A DNA stretch of 64,000 nt, from the IMG/VR virus record IMGVR_UViG_3300032247_000928, positions 1 through 64,000 of that record; one strand, given 5' to 3'. A program made the translations under genes and the position numbers. Shown here piece after piece: positions 20,964-48,633 of the stretch (its first letter is position 1; each line of letters starts with the position of its first letter). The notes beneath the pieces are model-generated. The model searched no databases. It worked only from the letters and a program-made list of their open reading frames with translations, and was not told the DNA's origin. The stretch is from a virus. Taxonomy: Duplodnaviria; Caudoviricetes.

Positions 20964-21683
20964 TTATTCAAAGCGCATGCCTTGTCTATACCCCTTTTTA
21001 TAATGAGACATGGGAACAGACTCTTTTTCTTGAATAAGTTCTACCTTTTTATTAAAAAACCTTTGATCATCATTAATAGTATGATTCCAATCTTCACGTT
21101 TTATTGGAATGATTGAAAGAAGTGGAGTTCCAGCCTTGATTAATCCCTCAAAGTTATCTTTGATATGAAAACTAACATTTCCTGGAAGAGGATAAACATC
21201 ATAGTCGGCAAGTCCAGATACTGTTGTAAATGGCAAATCATATCTATTTATTGGGTGTGTTATTAGTGCTGACCAACCTTCTGGCATTTGAATACCCCAA
21301 TGCATTTGCCAACCAAAATGCGCCTGATAGTGTCCATGTGGAACTGGCATCTCTTTAAGAACTCTGTCTCCTGCTGGCTCCATCGGAGAATCCCAAGATA
21401 GTTTAGGAATATTATTTTTATCTATTAATACATGAATATCTGTATGCAATAGGTAATGATAGCCACATGTCATCGCATCATAGTATGGCATACAATGTTT
21501 CATGCTAAGAAAAACATTTGATCTGCTTGCTGTTCCATCTTTAAATTTTTCATAATCATTTTCGCCATGAAACCTTGGCATATTTTTCCAATAGTCTGGC
21601 AAGTTATCTCTTGCTGGTGTTGGAGAAATGGATGACTCTTTGGCTCCTTGTCCCCATGGATAAAACTGAATTACATTACTCAC
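20964..21683 (-). CDS. Degenerate dUTPase-like family protein, paralog 2
   Basis: KHCMPYYDAMTCGY, PEGWSALITHPINR.DLPF, SGLADYDVY, IKAGTPLLSIIPIKR. Confidence 0.7.
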   Translation of the reverse strand: MSNVIQFYPWGQGAKESSISPTPARDNLPDYWKNMPRFHGENDYEKFKDGTASRSNVFLSMKHCMPYYDAMTCGYHYLLHTDIHVLIDKNNIPKLSWDSPMEPAGDRVLKEMPVPHGHYQAHFGWQMHWGIQMPEGWSALITHPINRYDLPFTTVSGLADYDVYPLPGNVSFHIKDNFEGLIKAGTPLLSIIPIKREDWNHTINDDQRFFNKKVELIQEKESVPMSHYKKGYRQGMRFE

Positions 21684-22743
21684 TTAGACTTCTTTCTAAA
21701 TCATACAGCATTCTTCCTGCTGGATATTTATTGCCAGTTTCTTCTACCATCTTATACATTTCTGAATAAAATTTTTTGTAATTTAATCCAGATGCTTTTT
21801 CGTATTCTTCAATTAATTCTACTGATGGTGAGCCATATTCTCCAAGAACTTTTCCAGTTAAAATTTCTTTGTTTCTTAATGTACCAGAAACAACTTTATC
21901 TTTAAACGATATTCCATTTTCATCTGTTTCAAGATATGTTTGTTTCCATGAATTAGGAACATCTCTTCCCATTGAGTTAACGTCCCTTGTCCAAAGCACA
22001 TGATCTTTAATATTAAAAATTTTATATCCTCTTGTCCATGCTAATAGTGCAATTGCATTTTCTTCGTGGTAAGCAAGCATTGGATCATATTTAACATCTT
22101 TAATAAAAGATCCAGAAGTAAATAAAAAATGTCCAGATATTAAATAATGTTCTTCATAGCCTAGTTCATTATAGTTTGCAGTCTTTGCACCAGGGGAATC
22201 TAGGGCCTCAATGCCGTAAGCAAATGATAGATACTTTTCTTCATTTTCTATCCCTAAAGCCTCTGGATGGCTCTTGGAGACAAGAGACCAAGATGGATAA
22301 TCTGCTTCCCAGTTATTGTCCTTAACCATTGTAGTCTTTTCTCCAGTGTTCTTATCCCTATAATAGTAAGGAACATATGAAGATATGATTGGTTTTTCAT
22401 ATACCGTTTTTAATTTAACATAATTCTGTTTTAATGTTTTGTCCCAGTTATTTTTAAATACTGTATGCCCATCAATTTGCAAATAGTACTCTTCTTCTTT
22501 ATAGAATGTTGATGCTAACATTCTGCTCATGCCTACACCAAGGCCAATTTTCTCACTTATATTAACAAAATCTACATTTTTATATTTACTTAGATCTGGG
22601 AAATTTTTTTTTGGATAATGCAAAACAACACCAATATAAATATTATCAGGATTTTCTGCTTTAGAAAAAGCAGTATCTATGGTGTCAATAATATCTTCTT
22701 CGTTATAGGCTGCAATACCAATAAAAATTGAATCTTGTTTCAT
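21676..22743 (-). CDS. GT60-like (Skp1-hydroxyproline GlcNAc-transferase type) glycosyltransferase, paralog 1
   Basis: IFIGIAAYNE..II.TI..AFSKAENPDNIYIGVV N-terminus, YYLQIDGHTVF (DxH), SGHFLF, EE..IALLAWTRGY. Confidence 0.75.
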   Translation of the reverse strand: MKQDSIFIGIAAYNEEDIIDTIDTAFSKAENPDNIYIGVVLHYPKKNFPDLSKYKNVDFVNISEKIGLGVGMSRMLASTFYKEEEYYLQIDGHTVFKNNWDKTLKQNYVKLKTVYEKPIISSYVPYYYRDKNTGEKTTMVKDNNWEADYPSWSLVSKSHPEALGIENEEKYLSFAYGIEALDSPGAKTANYNELGYEEHYLISGHFLFTSGSFIKDVKYDPMLAYHEENAIALLAWTRGYKIFNIKDHVLWTRDVNSMGRDVPNSWKQTYLETDENGISFKDKVVSGTLRNKEILTGKVLGEYGSPSVELIEEYEKASGLNYKKFYSEMYKMVEETGNKYPAGRMLYDLERSLSE

Positions 22744-43375: not shown

Positions 43376-43717
43376 TTATTTCCCGTAGTGTTTTGCTACC
43401 TCTTGGGGTGTCGCTGTGCGAACCTTATCGTGGGTAAGCCACTTTTCGGAAACCTCCTTGGTTACAATGTTATAGCCTTTTACAACTTCTCCAACACCGT
43501 TCCAGAAGATATTACGCTCTGAAAATAGTGCTACTTTTTCTTCTACAGGCTTTACAATTTTTGGTACTGCTATTGATTCTTCTTTTGGTGTCCAACTAGC
43601 AATTACCTCAAGCATATGAGCCTTTGTTTTTACCCCAAATAAATCAATATTATTTTTCTTTGCATAAGACTTTATTTCCATAACAGTCTTTTTAGACAAA
43701 TCTTCAATAATAGACAT
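43376..43717 (-). CDS. Hypothetical protein (Rho-N-like helical N-terminus)
   Basis: LSKKTVMEIKSYAKKNNIDL..VKTKAHMLEVI; SD AGGAGG; promoter TGGTATAAT at 43734-43742. Confidence 0.7.
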   Translation of the reverse strand: MSIIEDLSKKTVMEIKSYAKKNNIDLFGVKTKAHMLEVIASWTPKEESIAVPKIVKPVEEKVALFSERNIFWNGVGEVVKGYNIVTKEVSEKWLTHDKVRTATPQEVAKHYGK

Positions 43718-43745
43718 TAGTTCCTCCTATGTCATTATACCAGAA

Positions 43746-44003
43746 TTAGCGGGTTCTTCTTCTATATGTTGAACTATAACTTCTAAAATTATTTTGTGAT
43801 GGCAAACGAATTCCGTTTGGTGTTCCAGATGGATTAACTGCATTTGGTCCTGACGTATCACCCATATTTGGTTCTCCAAGTGTTCCCATTGTATTAACTT
43901 GTAAACCACCTGGTCCCATAACAATTACTCCTGGATTTCCAAGTGTAACAATTGCACCCTCAGCAATATGAGTGTGTCCTTCTGGTGTTCCTGGATATGA
44001 CAT
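43746..44003 (-). CDS. Small protein homologous to the N-terminal arm of the major capsid protein
   Basis: YPGTPEGHTHIAEG / GPNAVNPSGTPNGIRLPSQ against capsid YPGTTQGHTHTGEG / GPNGVNPVGTPGGILLPEQ; SD AAGGAG. Confidence 0.82.
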   Translation of the reverse strand: MSYPGTPEGHTHIAEGAIVTLGNPGVIVMGPGGLQVNTMGTLGEPNMGDTSGPNAVNPSGTPNGIRLPSQNNFRSYSSTYRRRTR

Positions 44004-44027
44004 TATTACTCCTTATTAATGACTAAA

Positions 44028-44051
44028 GGGGACGGATTTTATACCGTCCCC
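44028..44051 (-). terminator. Terminator/attenuator after the major capsid gene
   Basis: GGGGACGG-TATAAAAT-CCGTCCCC with only TTT following, so possibly leaky. Confidence 0.7.
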
Positions 44052-44070
44052 CAAGTCAATCGTTTAGCGA

Positions 44071-45183
44071 TTATGAGTTGTTTGCTGCTGTTGCAAATGC
44101 AACTGCGTCAAGTTCTTCCCACTGAATACCAAAGCGGACGAATACTGTGTATTCAATTGTGTCCTTCTTTGGCTGGTAGAAACGGTTTACAGTGATATCA
44201 CGCTGGAATCCCCATACACGGTTCTGAGGGAATGTAAGATCTACATAACCTGCAGGGTAGTAAGGAACTTCCTGAACTTCAACACCGAGAACACGAGTTG
44301 TACGTGCTCCACCAAATGTCTGAGCGTTACCGTCGTAGTATGCCTGACGATTAGCCTCAGTACCACCAAGACGTGGCGTAAATGCTTCTGCAATTGCATC
44401 TGCAAGTGTACCGTTATTCTTGACAATACCTTGGAATGCATCTGTACCAGCATAGAACTTAAGATTGTTCTTGATTGCACGATACTTACGTGGCATTGCG
44501 AGGATGATATTTTGAAGTACTGGTGTAGTCCAGTTGTTATCAGCAACTGTTACGTATGACTCGTGTGAGTCTCCGCCCTGTGCCTTTGAAACGAAGCCTT
44601 CCATGATTGAAAGGAAGTTTCCTGTTGAACCGTCACCGTTGATCGCAAGATCTTCAATGTCGTTTGCAAAAGCAGTTGTCATCAAACGTACTAGATGATC
44701 TTCAAGAGCTCCACCTTCTACGTTATCTTCTAGTGCTTCTGTTGATACTTCCCAGTCCAGACGAATCTTCTTAGTAGTCAATTCAACCTTTGAGAAAGTT
44801 GCGCCTGCATTTGTAAATGTAGGGTCTGCTTGTGCTGCTGCACGAATTACACGCTCACCAACGTTAACTTTTTCAAGTTCCATTGTGTTGGCTCTCATAG
44901 TAACTCTACGTCCATCCTTAGCGAGAACTGTAGCATCCCACACATAATCAATGAAGCGACGTGCTTGTTCAGGCAATAGAATACCGCCTGGAGTACCTAC
45001 TGGATTAACTCCATTAGGACCTTCAGTTCCGTAATTTGCACCTGCAATGTTACCCATAACGCCAAGACGACCATTAGCAATGGCTGCTGCGTTACCAGTA
45101 GAGCCAGATGCTACTGAGCCCTCACCTGTATGAGTGTGGCCCTGTGTTGTACCTGGATAGTTTTTTACGATATCTTCTGACAT
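44071..45183 (-). CDS. Major capsid protein (HK97 fold)
   Basis: GGILLPEQARRFIDYV, ELTTKKIRLDWEVSTEALEDN, NDIEDLAINGDG; SD AGGAGGTGA before ATG 45183. Confidence 0.95.
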   Translation of the reverse strand: MSEDIVKNYPGTTQGHTHTGEGSVASGSTGNAAAIANGRLGVMGNIAGANYGTEGPNGVNPVGTPGGILLPEQARRFIDYVWDATVLAKDGRRVTMRANTMELEKVNVGERVIRAAAQADPTFTNAGATFSKVELTTKKIRLDWEVSTEALEDNVEGGALEDHLVRLMTTAFANDIEDLAINGDGSTGNFLSIMEGFVSKAQGGDSHESYVTVADNNWTTPVLQNIILAMPRKYRAIKNNLKFYAGTDAFQGIVKNNGTLADAIAEAFTPRLGGTEANRQAYYDGNAQTFGGARTTRVLGVEVQEVPYYPAGYVDLTFPQNRVWGFQRDITVNRFYQPKKDTIEYTVFVRFGIQWEELDAVAFATAANNS

Positions 45184-45210
45184 ATTGTTCACCTCCTAGT
45201 GATTTTTATG

Positions 45211-46569
45211 TTAGTTATATAGGTCGGAGAATTTGAGGAAACGTCCGCCCCATAGGGATTTTTGAAGTGGACTTTCATCCAATTCCTGCACGATCTCGCC
45301 TAGATCGCCAGACTTGCGGAAAGCGGTGTCCTTTTCTACGGAATCAACTCTCTTTCCAATTTCATTAAAAGTACCCTTGATCTGATTTACATCAGTTGTT
45401 GTGGCATCAAGAGACTTCTTCATATTTGCAACTTCATCACCAAGTGATTTAATTGTTGCTGTTAGATCGCTAAAGGCATTAGTAACAGAATCTTTAAGTT
45501 CTGTAATTACATCAGTAATTACATCATCTGACTTAGGAGCCATTGGCTTCTTCTTGTCTTCTGCTTCTTCATCTGCTGGTGTTTCAGCTGCAGCATCAGC
45601 AGCAGATTCTTCTTCATCAGCTATTGGCTTTGCAGCCTTTTCTGTTGAATCTTCTTCTGTTGCATCAGACTTCATATCGCACTTGCACTTATCCATGGGA
45701 TTGTTGCAATCTGGACACATTGCTGCATCTGCCTTTGGAGCGACCTCTGCTGATACTGCTTCTGTCTTTGCAACGGGTGCATCAACTACTGCTGTTGTAT
45801 CTTCTGACATAGGGTTTACCTCCTTGTTAATCTTAGAAGTATTAATGCCTTTAGCACTATCAACTAAGAATTTTATCATGTTTGCTTTTTCTGAATCATT
45901 TTTTTCTACAAAACCAATATTTTTCATTTCGTTACCACTTACTGGGCTAACGTATGTTTCTTCATCAGAGGTTAAAACAATTCCTGTTTCTTCATCATAA
46001 AAAACATTTTCTACAACTACATCTGCAAGATCACCTTTAATTGTATTTACACCATTAACTTTTTCAACTGACATAATACTTGCAAATTGATTTGCTGGGG
46101 AATCTACAAGACTCAACTCAACAAGATCGTAATCTTTAATAATTCTAATTGCTTTATCAAGTTCTTCATTATATGCATCATCCCATTTGTTCATTCTACC
46201 GCCAATAGAAAAACCAGTGTATGTTCCGTCAAGAACTTTTTCCCAAGCATCTGCTGCTCCCTTAGAAATGTATGTAGAAACATAGATACCTTTATAAAAC
46301 TTTTTTGATTCTGGATCAAAATATTTTTCTTCTTTAAATGAAATCATTTTGCCTACTGCAGAGGGTTGATGCATTTCTCTAATATTTCCACGGAACTTTG
46401 CAAAAGCACTCATTGATGCTTCAGTGGTAACAATGTCATATTGCTTATCAACATTATCAACAGATGCAAAACCAGAGACAATTCTCTTCTCAATATCTAC
46501 TTTGCCAAAGGGCATTGATAAGCGAACATTGTCGCCGTCAGTGGTCCAAAAAGCTTTATTTATGTTCAT
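45211..46569 (-). CDS. Prohead protease fused to acidic scaffolding region
   Basis: VSGFAS, REMH, GFSIGG, ELSLVDSPAN (HK97 protease), then an Asp/Glu/Ala-rich linker and coiled coil. Start ATG 46569; the track's ATG overlaps the -10 box at 46580-46588. Confidence 0.9.
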   Translation of the reverse strand: MNINKAFWTTDGDNVRLSMPFGKVDIEKRIVSGFASVDNVDKQYDIVTTEASMSAFAKFRGNIREMHQPSAVGKMISFKEEKYFDPESKKFYKGIYVSTYISKGAADAWEKVLDGTYTGFSIGGRMNKWDDAYNEELDKAIRIIKDYDLVELSLVDSPANQFASIMSVEKVNGVNTIKGDLADVVVENVFYDEETGIVLTSDEETYVSPVSGNEMKNIGFVEKNDSEKANMIKFLVDSAKGINTSKINKEVNPMSEDTTAVVDAPVAKTEAVSAEVAPKADAAMCPDCNNPMDKCKCDMKSDATEEDSTEKAAKPIADEEESAADAAAETPADEEAEDKKKPMAPKSDDVITDVITELKDSVTNAFSDLTATIKSLGDEVANMKKSLDATTTDVNQIKGTFNEIGKRVDSVEKDTAFRKSGDLGEIVQELDESPLQKSLWGGRFLKFSDLYN

Positions 46570-46610
46570 ATCGTATTCCATTATACCAAATGTTTATGTA
46601 GGTTTCTCAA

Positions 46611-48245
46611 CTATTGAGACGCTCTACCTTCACCCTTCGGATTACGTCCAGATACTGTTGCAGAACCATCTGATTGATTATTTGTTCTCTCTGCATCTCT
46701 AGAACGATTTCCATTTGCTCTTGAATCTGCAGACTGTCTTGGGCTTAATTCAAGCGGTGTATCGCCATGATCTGCTTGAGGAAGATCTAAAATTTCACGG
46801 GCTTCATTAGGAAGCATAATCTGATTCTTAACATAACGCTCAAGAATCTGGGACTGTGCAATTTCATCTGTAAGAGTAAGTTCATTAAACTTGAACTGAA
46901 GAATATCTGTTCTTTCCTTGATAAGCTTGCTAATTACCTTTTCAAGGTGCTGTTGTTCTGGACGAGATACCTGCTCTTTAAAAGTACGGTCTTGTGCTAA
47001 GGCTGCTGCAATTGCTCCTGAATCTGAACCGCCAAGTTTAGAAATTGGAACCTGATGAGCAATTAAAATATCATCACGGTTCTGCTTACGATACTCTTTA
47101 AATGATCCATCTTGAATACCGTTTTCAATTGGCTTCATATCAAACTCAACCTTAGAGTGATCATTGTCGCCAGGAAGTGGGATATATAGAGTTCTGTGTG
47201 ACTGAGACTTTAGTCCTGTTTGCAAGAATCTAAACATCTTATCTTCGGCATCAGCAGATAACTTAGCACCCTTAAGAGTAATTACATATCTTGGTACCGC
47301 TTTGTTTTCAAAATAATCAATGTTGTATTGTGAAGCAAGTTGATCACCAATAAGTGATGGCAGCGCTGCAATAATATCTGGAACACCATAATATGTATTT
47401 AGTGGTGAATAATCTTTGAAATGAATAATTTCATTTGGACGTGGATCTGCTGTTAATGGATTTTGATTTGTGGCACCAAAGTTGCGGAAGTAAACAACCT
47501 TTGGTCCAATAATTTGAACGTGCCCATCACGAATACGGCGCACTCTCATTGTTGTAGATGGAATATGACCAACATATCCAATCTCACCACTTACTGTTCT
47601 GCCAACTTCCATATAGCCATTTCCAGTTGCCTGAAGGTCTGTATAAATTTTTTCCATTGTTCTTGTAAAACTATCATCATCGTTAAGTGACTCAAGCCAA
47701 TCACGAAGTTCTAATTTTGCTCTTTCAATTCTCTTACGTGCACGATCTGTTGCACCTTGGTCTGCGTTATTTTCAAGGCTCATCATTGTACGGTCTGTTA
47801 CATCAAAACGGTAGCCAAGACCAACAACATTTTCTACCTTTGCATCAATTGCAGCATGGTTAGCAAAAGACGTATCATAAAAATTAGCAAGCTCATACAT
47901 ATTGTATGGTGGTGTAATTACATCAAAAAGACCGTATCCATTTCGGTATACCAAACCAGGGTTAATTGCCTTTGATCCAGAATCTTTTAAACCTTTTGGA
48001 TCTGCATTTGCTGAGTCAAGATAAGGAATACTAAGAAGATCAATATTTGCATTAGTAGCAAGATAACCTTCTTGTGTCATTGCTTTATTTACTTGTCTAG
48101 TAATACGACGTTTAACATTTTCTTCAAGTCCCGCTAAAGATTTTAGTTCATCCCATGTTTTGTTAAATGGATCACTATTTTTAAACTGATTTTCTGGTTT
48201 TTCTGTAGTGCCAAGTCTGGCTTCTAGATAATCACTATTACTCAT
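46611..48245 (-). CDS. Portal protein
   Basis: HAAIDAKVENVVGLG, DLQATGNGYMEV, YYGVPDII, NKAVPRYVI, LPNEAREIL. Start ATG 48245. Confidence 0.93.
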   Translation of the reverse strand: MSNSDYLEARLGTTEKPENQFKNSDPFNKTWDELKSLAGLEENVKRRITRQVNKAMTQEGYLATNANIDLLSIPYLDSANADPKGLKDSGSKAINPGLVYRNGYGLFDVITPPYNMYELANFYDTSFANHAAIDAKVENVVGLGYRFDVTDRTMMSLENNADQGATDRARKRIERAKLELRDWLESLNDDDSFTRTMEKIYTDLQATGNGYMEVGRTVSGEIGYVGHIPSTTMRVRRIRDGHVQIIGPKVVYFRNFGATNQNPLTADPRPNEIIHFKDYSPLNTYYGVPDIIAALPSLIGDQLASQYNIDYFENKAVPRYVITLKGAKLSADAEDKMFRFLQTGLKSQSHRTLYIPLPGDNDHSKVEFDMKPIENGIQDGSFKEYRKQNRDDILIAHQVPISKLGGSDSGAIAAALAQDRTFKEQVSRPEQQHLEKVISKLIKERTDILQFKFNELTLTDEIAQSQILERYVKNQIMLPNEAREILDLPQADHGDTPLELSPRQSADSRANGNRSRDAERTNNQSDGSATVSGRNPKGEGRASQ

Positions 48246-48633
48246 TAAATGCATCCTTGCCTGATTTATTAAGAGTCTGTTGTGCTGCATGCCAAGCACC
48301 AAGGTCATTCATTGAAGGAATAAGTCCAGACTTCATGCGATCTAATTGTTCTGAATGTTCCTCTTCGGTAATACGAGTAAGGCCAGGAACAAAGACTGCT
48401 TCGCCATCACCTTCGTCACCATAATATTTGGCTGCTGATTTAAGTTCTGCAATTTTAGTTAAATCATTACGCATAGACTCAATATTTAGTACATTACCTT
48501 GTCCATCAGTAAACCATTTACCATTTGATTTTTTGTATACATATAGACCCCAGTTATATTTCTTTTCAATAACTTGTCTACGTACATTTTTGACAATTGG
48601 TTCGCCAGTTTCGGGGTTGATTAATGAATCCAT
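48238..48633 (-). CDS. Conserved hypothetical protein upstream of the portal
   Basis: Probably leaderless: ATG 48633 lies 7 nt after TGGTATACT (48641-48649). Confidence 0.75.
   Translation of the reverse strand: MDSLINPETGEPIVKNVRRQVIEKKYNWGLYVYKKSNGKWFTDGQGNVLNIESMRNDLTKIAELKSAAKYYGDEGDGEAVFVPGLTRITEEEHSEQLDRMKSGLIPSMNDLGAWHAAQQTLNKSGKDAFNE

Follow-up and report, generated by a model that had tools for sequence, protein, structure and literature searches.

A free-standing, conserved paralogue of the capsid N-terminal extension encoded behind the major capsid gene of a tailed phage

Why would a phage keep, directly behind the gene for its major capsid protein (MCP), a short second gene that repeats the beginning of that protein? 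The question is raised by a 64,000-nt stretch of DNA from an uncultured lake phage (the window), which is part of a 79.9-kb IMG/VR record estimated to be 73% complete. In this study, we found that the short gene, here called the mini-gene, almost certainly encodes a functional and conserved paralogue of the MCP.

The mini-gene and the part of the capsid protein that it copies

The head module is read from right to left in the order portal, protease-scaffold, MCP, mini-gene, 113-aa gene and 328-aa gene. The portal gene (46611-48308) lies upstream of a prohead protease of the S78 type that is fused to a scaffold-like part (45211..46581, minus strand), with a very acidic linker (approximately 37 acidic versus 10 basic residues), a coiled coil and a conserved C-terminal KSLWGGRFL motif. 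The linker also contains a C-P-D-C...C-K-C cysteine cluster, which is missing from the close relative L002 and occurs in three- or four-Cys versions in several other relatives; from its residues, the cluster may be a small metal-binding insert. The MCP gene (44071..45183, minus strand) encodes an HK97-fold protein that matched PF05065, TIGR01554 and phrog_1623. Its reading frame is open from a GTG at 45192, and this GTG sits within the Shine-Dalgarno (SD) sequence (AGGAGGTG). Since AGGAGG precedes the ATG at 45183, this ATG is probably the start, giving a product of 370 aa that begins M-S-E-D-I-V-K-N-Y-P-G.

The mini-gene (43746..44003, minus strand) starts 67 nt past the end of the MCP gene. 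It has an ATG start, with the SD AAGGAG (44009..44014, minus strand) 5 nt ahead, and encodes a protein of 85 aa and 8.9 kDa. A first-pass annotation, made from the letters of this DNA, had described an 85-aa ORF with a strong SD after the capsid gene, and this was confirmed; of the span that it gave (43746-44055), the ORF occupies the part just stated, and the remainder consists of the SD and of a GC-rich hairpin 3' of the MCP stop (44028..44051, minus strand). The hairpin, GGGGACGG-8 nt-CCGTCCCC, has a stem of 8-9 bp, an 8-nt loop and a short T run. It had been called a weak terminator, which is a fair label because only three T follow the stem and a terminator scan did not detect it. The 113-aa neighbour gene downstream (43376..43717, minus strand) is kept in all relatives and lies outside the duplication.

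BLASTP aligned residues 2-70 of the mini-protein with MCP residues 11-76 (44965..45162, minus strand), with identity at 34 of 71 positions (48%, E 4e-15), so the alignment with the capsid N-terminus proposed in the first-pass annotation held. A six-frame search of the whole 79.9-kb record found two copies only, one in the MCP and one in the mini-gene, and the N-terminal motif was found in no third protein of this record (73% complete).

The delta domain of HK97 precedes the N-arm. We determined which part of the MCP is copied by locating the start of the fold. The match of PF05065 (Phage_capsid, Pfam) on the MCP starts at residue 69, and positions 109-282 of the TIGR01554 profile, which includes the HK97 delta domain, match MCP residues 63-250. 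The 331-aa MCP of TunaTartare, a Streptomyces phage, is 42% identical; its residue 20 aligns to residue 69 of the window MCP, and the TunaTartare protein has no counterpart of the approximately 50 intervening residues, i.e., the extension is absent. PF05065, TIGR01554 and the alignment of Streptomyces phage MCPs together place the start of the HK97 fold at MCP residue ~66-69, and the mini-protein ends approximately 10 residues into the region where the family models start. By these alignments, the copied part is chiefly a lineage-specific, Gly-rich pre-arm extension, together with the first ~10 arm residues (G-T-P-G-G-I-L-L-P-E-Q). Located N-terminal to the N-arm, the MCP extension has the position of a delta-domain-type segment and, as far as alignment can place it, stands where HK97 has its delta domain; the mini-protein is its paralogue. 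Across the relatives, the MCP fold was nearly invariant and the extension was variable. The name "N-terminal arm" that had been given to the copied part fits the first ~10 arm residues, but most of the copy is pre-arm extension at the delta-domain position. The basic tail had been placed where the capsid fold would start, which agrees with family models that begin at MCP residue ~66-69.

The mini-protein begins M-S-Y-P-G. Its residues 1-70 are acidic (pI 4.8) and consist to 57% of Gly, Pro, Asn, Thr and Ser, and its tail (residues 71-85) has five Arg and no Asp or Glu (net charge +5, pI 11.8). Because the first 65 residues contain no Lys or Arg, the mini-protein would be missed by routine tryptic proteomics. 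An AF2 model from a 50-sequence alignment reached a pLDDT of 49, with two tiny strands, no helices and no fold, and the ESM Atlas model had a pLDDT of 0.28; from these low values, the mini-protein by itself is likely disordered. For the MCP, the AF2 model (pLDDT 35) was too poor to judge, and a complex prediction of MCP (57-row alignment) with mini-protein scored 0.00, which is evidence neither way.

No family match to the mini-protein was found in Pfam, PHROG or NCBIfam, and a profile search of the PDB gave no match. In the ESM Atlas, no look-alike matched by features, and the structural hits there rest on the model with pLDDT 0.28. The mini-protein is homologous to the N-terminal part of the MCP, although by fold it is no HK97-fold MCP, since it matches no family model. 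A profile search of 1.84 billion representatives returned only mini-proteins and MCP N-termini, besides three long repeat proteins (P0096, P0105 and P0106). The latter were rejected as compositional matches; they scored 3-13 bits per repeat, summed over identical Gly/Thr/Ser-rich repeats.

Distribution, selection and origin of the mini-gene

A scan of viral contigs with the MCP yielded 80 related loci. At least 37 of the 80 have, 65-76 nt past the MCP stop, an ORF of 70-85 aa whose product starts M-S-Y-P-G. A search of 5.8 billion proteins found 93 clusters of the mini-protein (90% identity), all unnamed and 75-92 aa long, with two shorter fragments (47 and 52 aa) left aside. In total, 136 distinct homologues were collected, all of them intact, 70-92 aa long and always in the same slot. 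In a tblastn search with the mini-protein against 50,697 phage records, no match was found, and literature searches yielded no account of the mini-gene family or of MCP processing in related Streptomyces phages.

We then compared the selection acting on the mini-gene and on the MCP by the Nei-Gojobori method. The dN/dS of the mini-gene among orthologues was 0.17 (15 loci) and 0.27 (16 loci) in two clades. In the same two clades, the values were 0.22 and 0.18 for the MCP extension and 0.15 and 0.12 for the MCP body. The ORF might instead be a pseudogene stub left over from a tandem duplication of the capsid gene, as its nature of a partial 5' copy immediately downstream of the parent gene would allow, and tandem duplications do occur at this locus in the relative L002. 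We consider this very improbable. All 136 distinct sequences have an intact frame and a constant length, dN/dS is 0.17-0.27, the SD is conserved, M-S-Y-P-G never varies, and some differences from the MCP are fixed; no relaxed selection, broken frame or variable length of the kind that marks a pseudogene was found. Nor does any relative have an intact second MCP besides the exact and evidently recent repeat in L002. The earlier claim of selection rather than decay is thus borne out by the dN/dS values, the 136 intact homologues and the fixed differences.

The repeat in L002 (L002:3647-5808), a close relative with an MCP that is 95% identical, is an exact tandem duplication of 1081 bp. It spans MCP codon ~50 through the hairpin to mini-gene codon 14, with a 7-nt microhomology (GGTGCAA) at its junction. 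Between an intact first MCP and an intact last mini-gene lies the middle copy, an out-of-frame chimera. This repeat reflects either illegitimate recombination in the very recent past or an artefact of assembly.

The origin of the mini-gene was analysed with a maximum likelihood tree of 33 mini-proteins and 62 MCP N-termini over 72 common columns. One branch, with a support of 100/98, split the two groups, and both subtrees were alike in shape. Because all mini-proteins group against all MCP N-termini, the tree points to one old duplication; on this evidence, a single partial duplication, of the capsid gene's 5' end, gave rise to the mini-gene.

On the MCP tree, the pattern of presence and absence of the mini-gene required 8 changes, and at least 6 of the changes were forced by well-supported branches. 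Several near-identical phage pairs differed only in the presence of the mini-gene. Such repeated changes among very close relatives indicate that the mini-gene, which by its substitution pattern is under constraint where present, is yet dispensable and is not needed for head assembly. Absence or disruption in close relatives under neutral dN/dS had been named as the finding that would speak against the first-pass annotation; many close relatives do lack the gene, but they lost it cleanly and repeatedly, and it is constrained where present.

In some relatives without the mini-gene (L059:3794-4114, and also L060, L078 and L070), another ORF of 106-111 aa follows the capsid hairpin. In its C-terminal half, this ORF is paralogous to the corresponding half of the 113-aa gene, from which it has diverged (29% over 48 aa, E 4e-5). 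Partial copies of adjacent genes seem to accumulate in the slot behind the capsid hairpin.

Expression signals and co-variation with the capsid protein

In every relative, a GC-rich hairpin of 9-14 bp, with compensatory changes, lies 3' of the MCP stop, and the intergenic region between MCP and mini-gene folds with -26 kcal/mol. All mini-bearing relatives have a GGAG-type SD. An extended -10 promoter (TGGTATAAT; 43734..43742, minus strand) lies 4 nt past the mini-gene stop and belongs to the next gene. It was found ahead of the 113-aa gene in 73 of 73 loci. In the mini-less loci (38/38), the hairpin is followed within a few bases by the extended -10 promoter (TGnTATAAT) and then by the 113-aa gene, and in the mini-bearing loci (35/35) the order is hairpin, SD, mini-gene, stop and then, 6-11 nt on, the same promoter. 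A TATAAT between MCP and mini-gene was absent in 34 of the 35 loci. The promoter at the capsid hairpin or the end of the mini-gene thus splits the head module into at least two transcription units, and by these signals the mini-gene is the last gene of the capsid transcription unit and lies beyond the hairpin. It does not have the promoter and terminator of its own that a moron has. An overlapping ORF of 65 aa in another frame (43727-43924) was rejected as a gene, its conserved C-terminus being the translated promoter and its starts and lengths being variable.

With no promoter of its own, and with the hairpin on one side and the next gene's promoter on the other, the mini-gene could, as far as these signals show, be transcribed only by read-through of the hairpin. 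Expression by read-through had been suggested before, and the route fits, with no recognisable promoter and a hairpin kept in every relative. Among RNA contigs from four metatranscriptomes, the conserved MCP body was heavily covered and the mini-gene was covered only at a depth of ~3 in one run, which says nothing on mini-gene expression or read-through because the variable N-terminal region of the MCP was equally poorly covered.

We compared the mini-protein with the MCP segment residue by residue. The MCP heptad at the start of the arm is G-I-L-(L/A)-P-E-Q, with its Leu and Glu in 69 of 69 sequences; among Streptomyces-type (BE-type) MCPs, the Leu was found in 106 of 106 and the Glu in 104 of 106. 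The mini-protein heptad is G-I-(R/K)-L-P-x-Q, with R/K in 132 of 136 sequences and Glu in none. The tail past the heptad Gln has a median of 9 residues and a median net charge of +4 (136 sequences), and in some clades the mini-protein ends at an R-R aligned with the invariant A-R-R-F of the MCP. The N-terminal M-S-Y-P-G is invariant among mini-proteins, and a hydrophobic stretch of the G-V-I-V-M-G type, without a counterpart in the MCP, is conserved in their middle. The mini-proteins of one subclade (L027, L028, L035, L037, L064 and L071) have two conserved Cys (G-C-I-A ... L-G-C-I-P), a pair missing from the clade of the window's mini-protein; their conservation hints at a disulfide or metal site.

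The two proteins also co-vary. An H-x-H pair was present in mini-protein and MCP together, or in neither, in 40 of 40 genomes, with at least two to three independent switches visible. The likeness of the N-segments was 0.56 for cognate pairs and 0.45-0.48 for non-cognate pairs (permutation p 2e-4, by a test that ignores shared ancestry). The C-segments showed no excess likeness between cognate mini-protein and MCP. Recent gene conversion is not supported as the source of this co-variation, since third-codon identity at the residues common to both genes was only ~0.5, with synonymous sites near random. Old gene conversion or co-selection is possible. From these patterns, the N-terminal motif seems to do the same job in the MCP and in the mini-protein.

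A mimic would also need to follow the motif of its cognate MCP, and the patchy presence of the mini-gene among near-identical phages is typical of accessory counter-defence genes. The mini-protein might then be directed at the host, as a decoy or sponge towards a defence with specificity for the capsid N-terminus, or as another anti-defence peptide. This explanation appears improbable, because a copied trigger would be expected to activate such a sensor rather than blunt it, because expression from the capsid operon is late, and because the scans of Pfam, PHROG and NCBIfam gave no match. We know of no defence system that senses a capsid N-terminal segment of this type.

Possible role of the mini-protein

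MCP propeptides and delta domains (HK97, T4 and T5) lie inside proheads, contact scaffold or protease and are usually removed. In T4, the position of the MCP propeptide and its removal by the prohead protease have been described (PMC9026906). By analogy, the MCP of this lineage may be cleaved by the S78-type protease encoded next to it. The first-pass annotation had suggested a minor internal or size-modulating peptide, a rival for binding to scaffold or protease, or a decoy for host defences; these are candidate roles for or against which the structure and complex predictions gave no indication. Since the extension is at the propeptide position and an acidic protease-scaffold fusion adjoins it, entry of the mini-protein into the prohead through MCP-type contacts is conceivable. 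Our preferred reading, held tentatively and somewhat short of an even chance, is that the mini-protein is an optional, accessory prohead-associated protein that uses the contacts of the MCP N-terminus. It would be produced along with the MCP, probably in smaller amounts through hairpin read-through, and the common N-terminal motif would bind the partner of the MCP N-terminus within the assembling prohead. Candidate partners are the acidic protease-scaffold core and neighbouring MCP N-termini. Because it has no HK97 fold, the mini-protein would be unable to polymerise and would ride along as an optional minor component of the prohead or head. With Arg in place of Leu, a neutral residue in place of Glu and a basic tail, the mini-protein would have a fate unlike that of the MCP segment. 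It might escape cleavage, undergo another kind of processing or be retained, and its binding partner might be the acidic scaffold linker or DNA.

The comparison with known systems shows both likeness and difference. The propeptides of T4 gp23 and T5 pb8 and the delta domain of HK97 gp5 are likewise N-terminal to the N-arm in phages with a prohead protease, and the segment described here resembles MCP propeptides in that it varies far more than the HK97 fold. However, known MCP propeptides act in cis, whereas here the second copy is a separate gene. The HK97 delta domain is a helical coiled coil, and the segment here is Gly-rich and predicted to be disordered; no helical or coiled-coil structure was present in the AF2 model of the mini-protein. 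Unlike in systems with HK97-type propeptides, a separate scaffold, fused to the protease, is also present here.

An N-terminal sequence directs the core and internal proteins of T4 into the prohead, whose protease processes them (PMC9026906), and gp67, gp68 and IPI-III are, like the mini-protein, small, partly basic and dispensable or variable proteins of the head module (PMC9026906). The T4 targeting sequence is approximately 10 residues long, common to several cargoes and not derived from the MCP (PMC9026906), whereas ~70 of the 85 mini-protein residues are MCP-like and only MCP and mini-protein carry the sequence. A short tag common to several packaged proteins, as in T4, was thus not found, and since no other protein of the record carries the motif, it is no general cargo-targeting tag. 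T4-type cargo is cleaved after the Glu of an L/I-x-E motif; here, the MCP has an invariant L-P-E-Q, the mini-protein never has Glu at the matching position, and the protease is of the S78 type. In the staphylococcal phage 80alpha, the capsid and scaffolding proteins share a homologous N-terminal sequence, so that, as here, two head-assembly proteins carry it (PMC5744158). The 80alpha motif, however, is 13-14 residues long, is copied from ribosomal protein L27 and is cut by the host protease Prp (PMC5744158), and the 80alpha proteins have large functional bodies, whereas here the common part is nearly the whole mini-protein. SaPI1 CpmB, a small protein with the terminal motif of an assembly protein that competes for the same site, offers a model for a module-only copy (PMC5644958). 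It is satellite-encoded, helical and dimeric, copies the C-terminus of the scaffold and changes capsid size (PMC5644958); the mini-protein is phage-encoded, is derived from the MCP N-terminus and is not known to affect capsid size. T4 gp24, the vertex protein and a paralogue of gp23, is also a duplicate of a capsid gene kept beside its parent, but it is a full-length HK97-fold paralogue that builds pentons, whereas the mini-protein has no fold domain. In none of these systems does the N-terminal extension of the capsid protein exist as a separate copy that is under selection. To our knowledge, no trans-acting copy of a capsid propeptide or N-terminal extension has been described in tailed phages.

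The precedent of CpmB, which shares a terminal motif with the 80alpha scaffold (PMC5644958), also bears on whether the mini-protein could act outside the particle. It would then be a soluble assembly modulator that competes with the MCP for the protease-scaffold, or a pseudo-substrate or inhibitor, and it would tune nucleation, scaffold load or the timing of maturation. Its homology to and co-variation with the cognate MCP N-terminus would suit this role, as would the loss of the MCP-invariant Glu and Leu from the conserved heptad, which might be expected of a non-cleavable analogue or one of altered affinity, and the position behind the hairpin, which suggests a sub-stoichiometric dose. However, the mini-gene has been lost repeatedly without visible compensation: no compensating change was seen in the MCP N-terminus or the scaffold-protease, and the protease-scaffold showed no gross difference in length, charge or Cys content between phages with and without the mini-gene. 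That the mini-protein is non-cleavable is itself conjecture. We therefore regard a soluble modulator as rather unlikely.

Many decoration proteins are, like the mini-protein, small, dispensable and encoded next to the MCP; their mark is a self-folding domain that attaches to the mature lattice, often as a trimer. The Gly/Thr/Pro-rich extension could thus lie on the capsid surface and the free copy add more of it, as a cement-like external accessory or a carrier of surface modification that is perhaps glycosylated on the conserved G-T-P motifs. The phage does encode a GT60-type glycosyltransferase (PF11397 GlcNAc, E 1.7e-28; 21676-22743, minus strand). This type of enzyme was also found in two long relatives (the L057 and L077 records), one with and one without the mini-gene, and it was absent from TunaTartare, whose MCP has no extension. 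With its gene in the tail-fibre region, however, the glycosyltransferase is more likely to act on the fibre. Segments N-terminal to the N-arm in HK97-type capsids usually face the prohead interior, the mini-protein is predicted to be disordered (pLDDT 49 and 0.28), with no decoration-protein-like fold in the models and no family match, and a basic tail is atypical of decoration proteins. An external role is hence given little chance.

Beyond the preferred reading of an accessory prohead protein, a broader proposal can be made, which is possible but doubtful. The N-terminal module of the capsid protein may have split off as a separate, co-evolving and trans-acting gene, whose product would be a "module-only" subunit that docks in the prohead through the contacts of the real subunit and cannot polymerise. 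As a further part of this doubtful proposal, the subunit might deliver a basic peptide, modulate scaffold or protease, or act as a mimic towards a host system that senses the capsid.

The stretch was found in lake and freshwater metagenomes of several studies. In lake and freshwater metatranscriptomes of four studies, the depths of contigs 85-100% identical to the MCP body (44100-44970) added up to hundreds, so that phages of this capsid type seem to be abundant and active in lakes. The relatives of the MCP in Streptomyces and Rhodococcus phages point to an actinobacterial host; no WhiB gene was found in the 79.9-kb record. The carriers are probably abundant lake phages of actinobacteria.

The occurrence of the mini-gene is a clear phenomenon that is widespread in lake phages. 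The partial duplication of a capsid gene into a stable, selected, module-only protein is an unusual way to a new head-assembly factor. Near-identical phages with and without the mini-gene provide a natural experiment on the role of N-terminal extensions of the HK97 fold. Residues 1-70 of the mini-protein would be a natural module for capsid targeting, provided that the protein does enter proheads.
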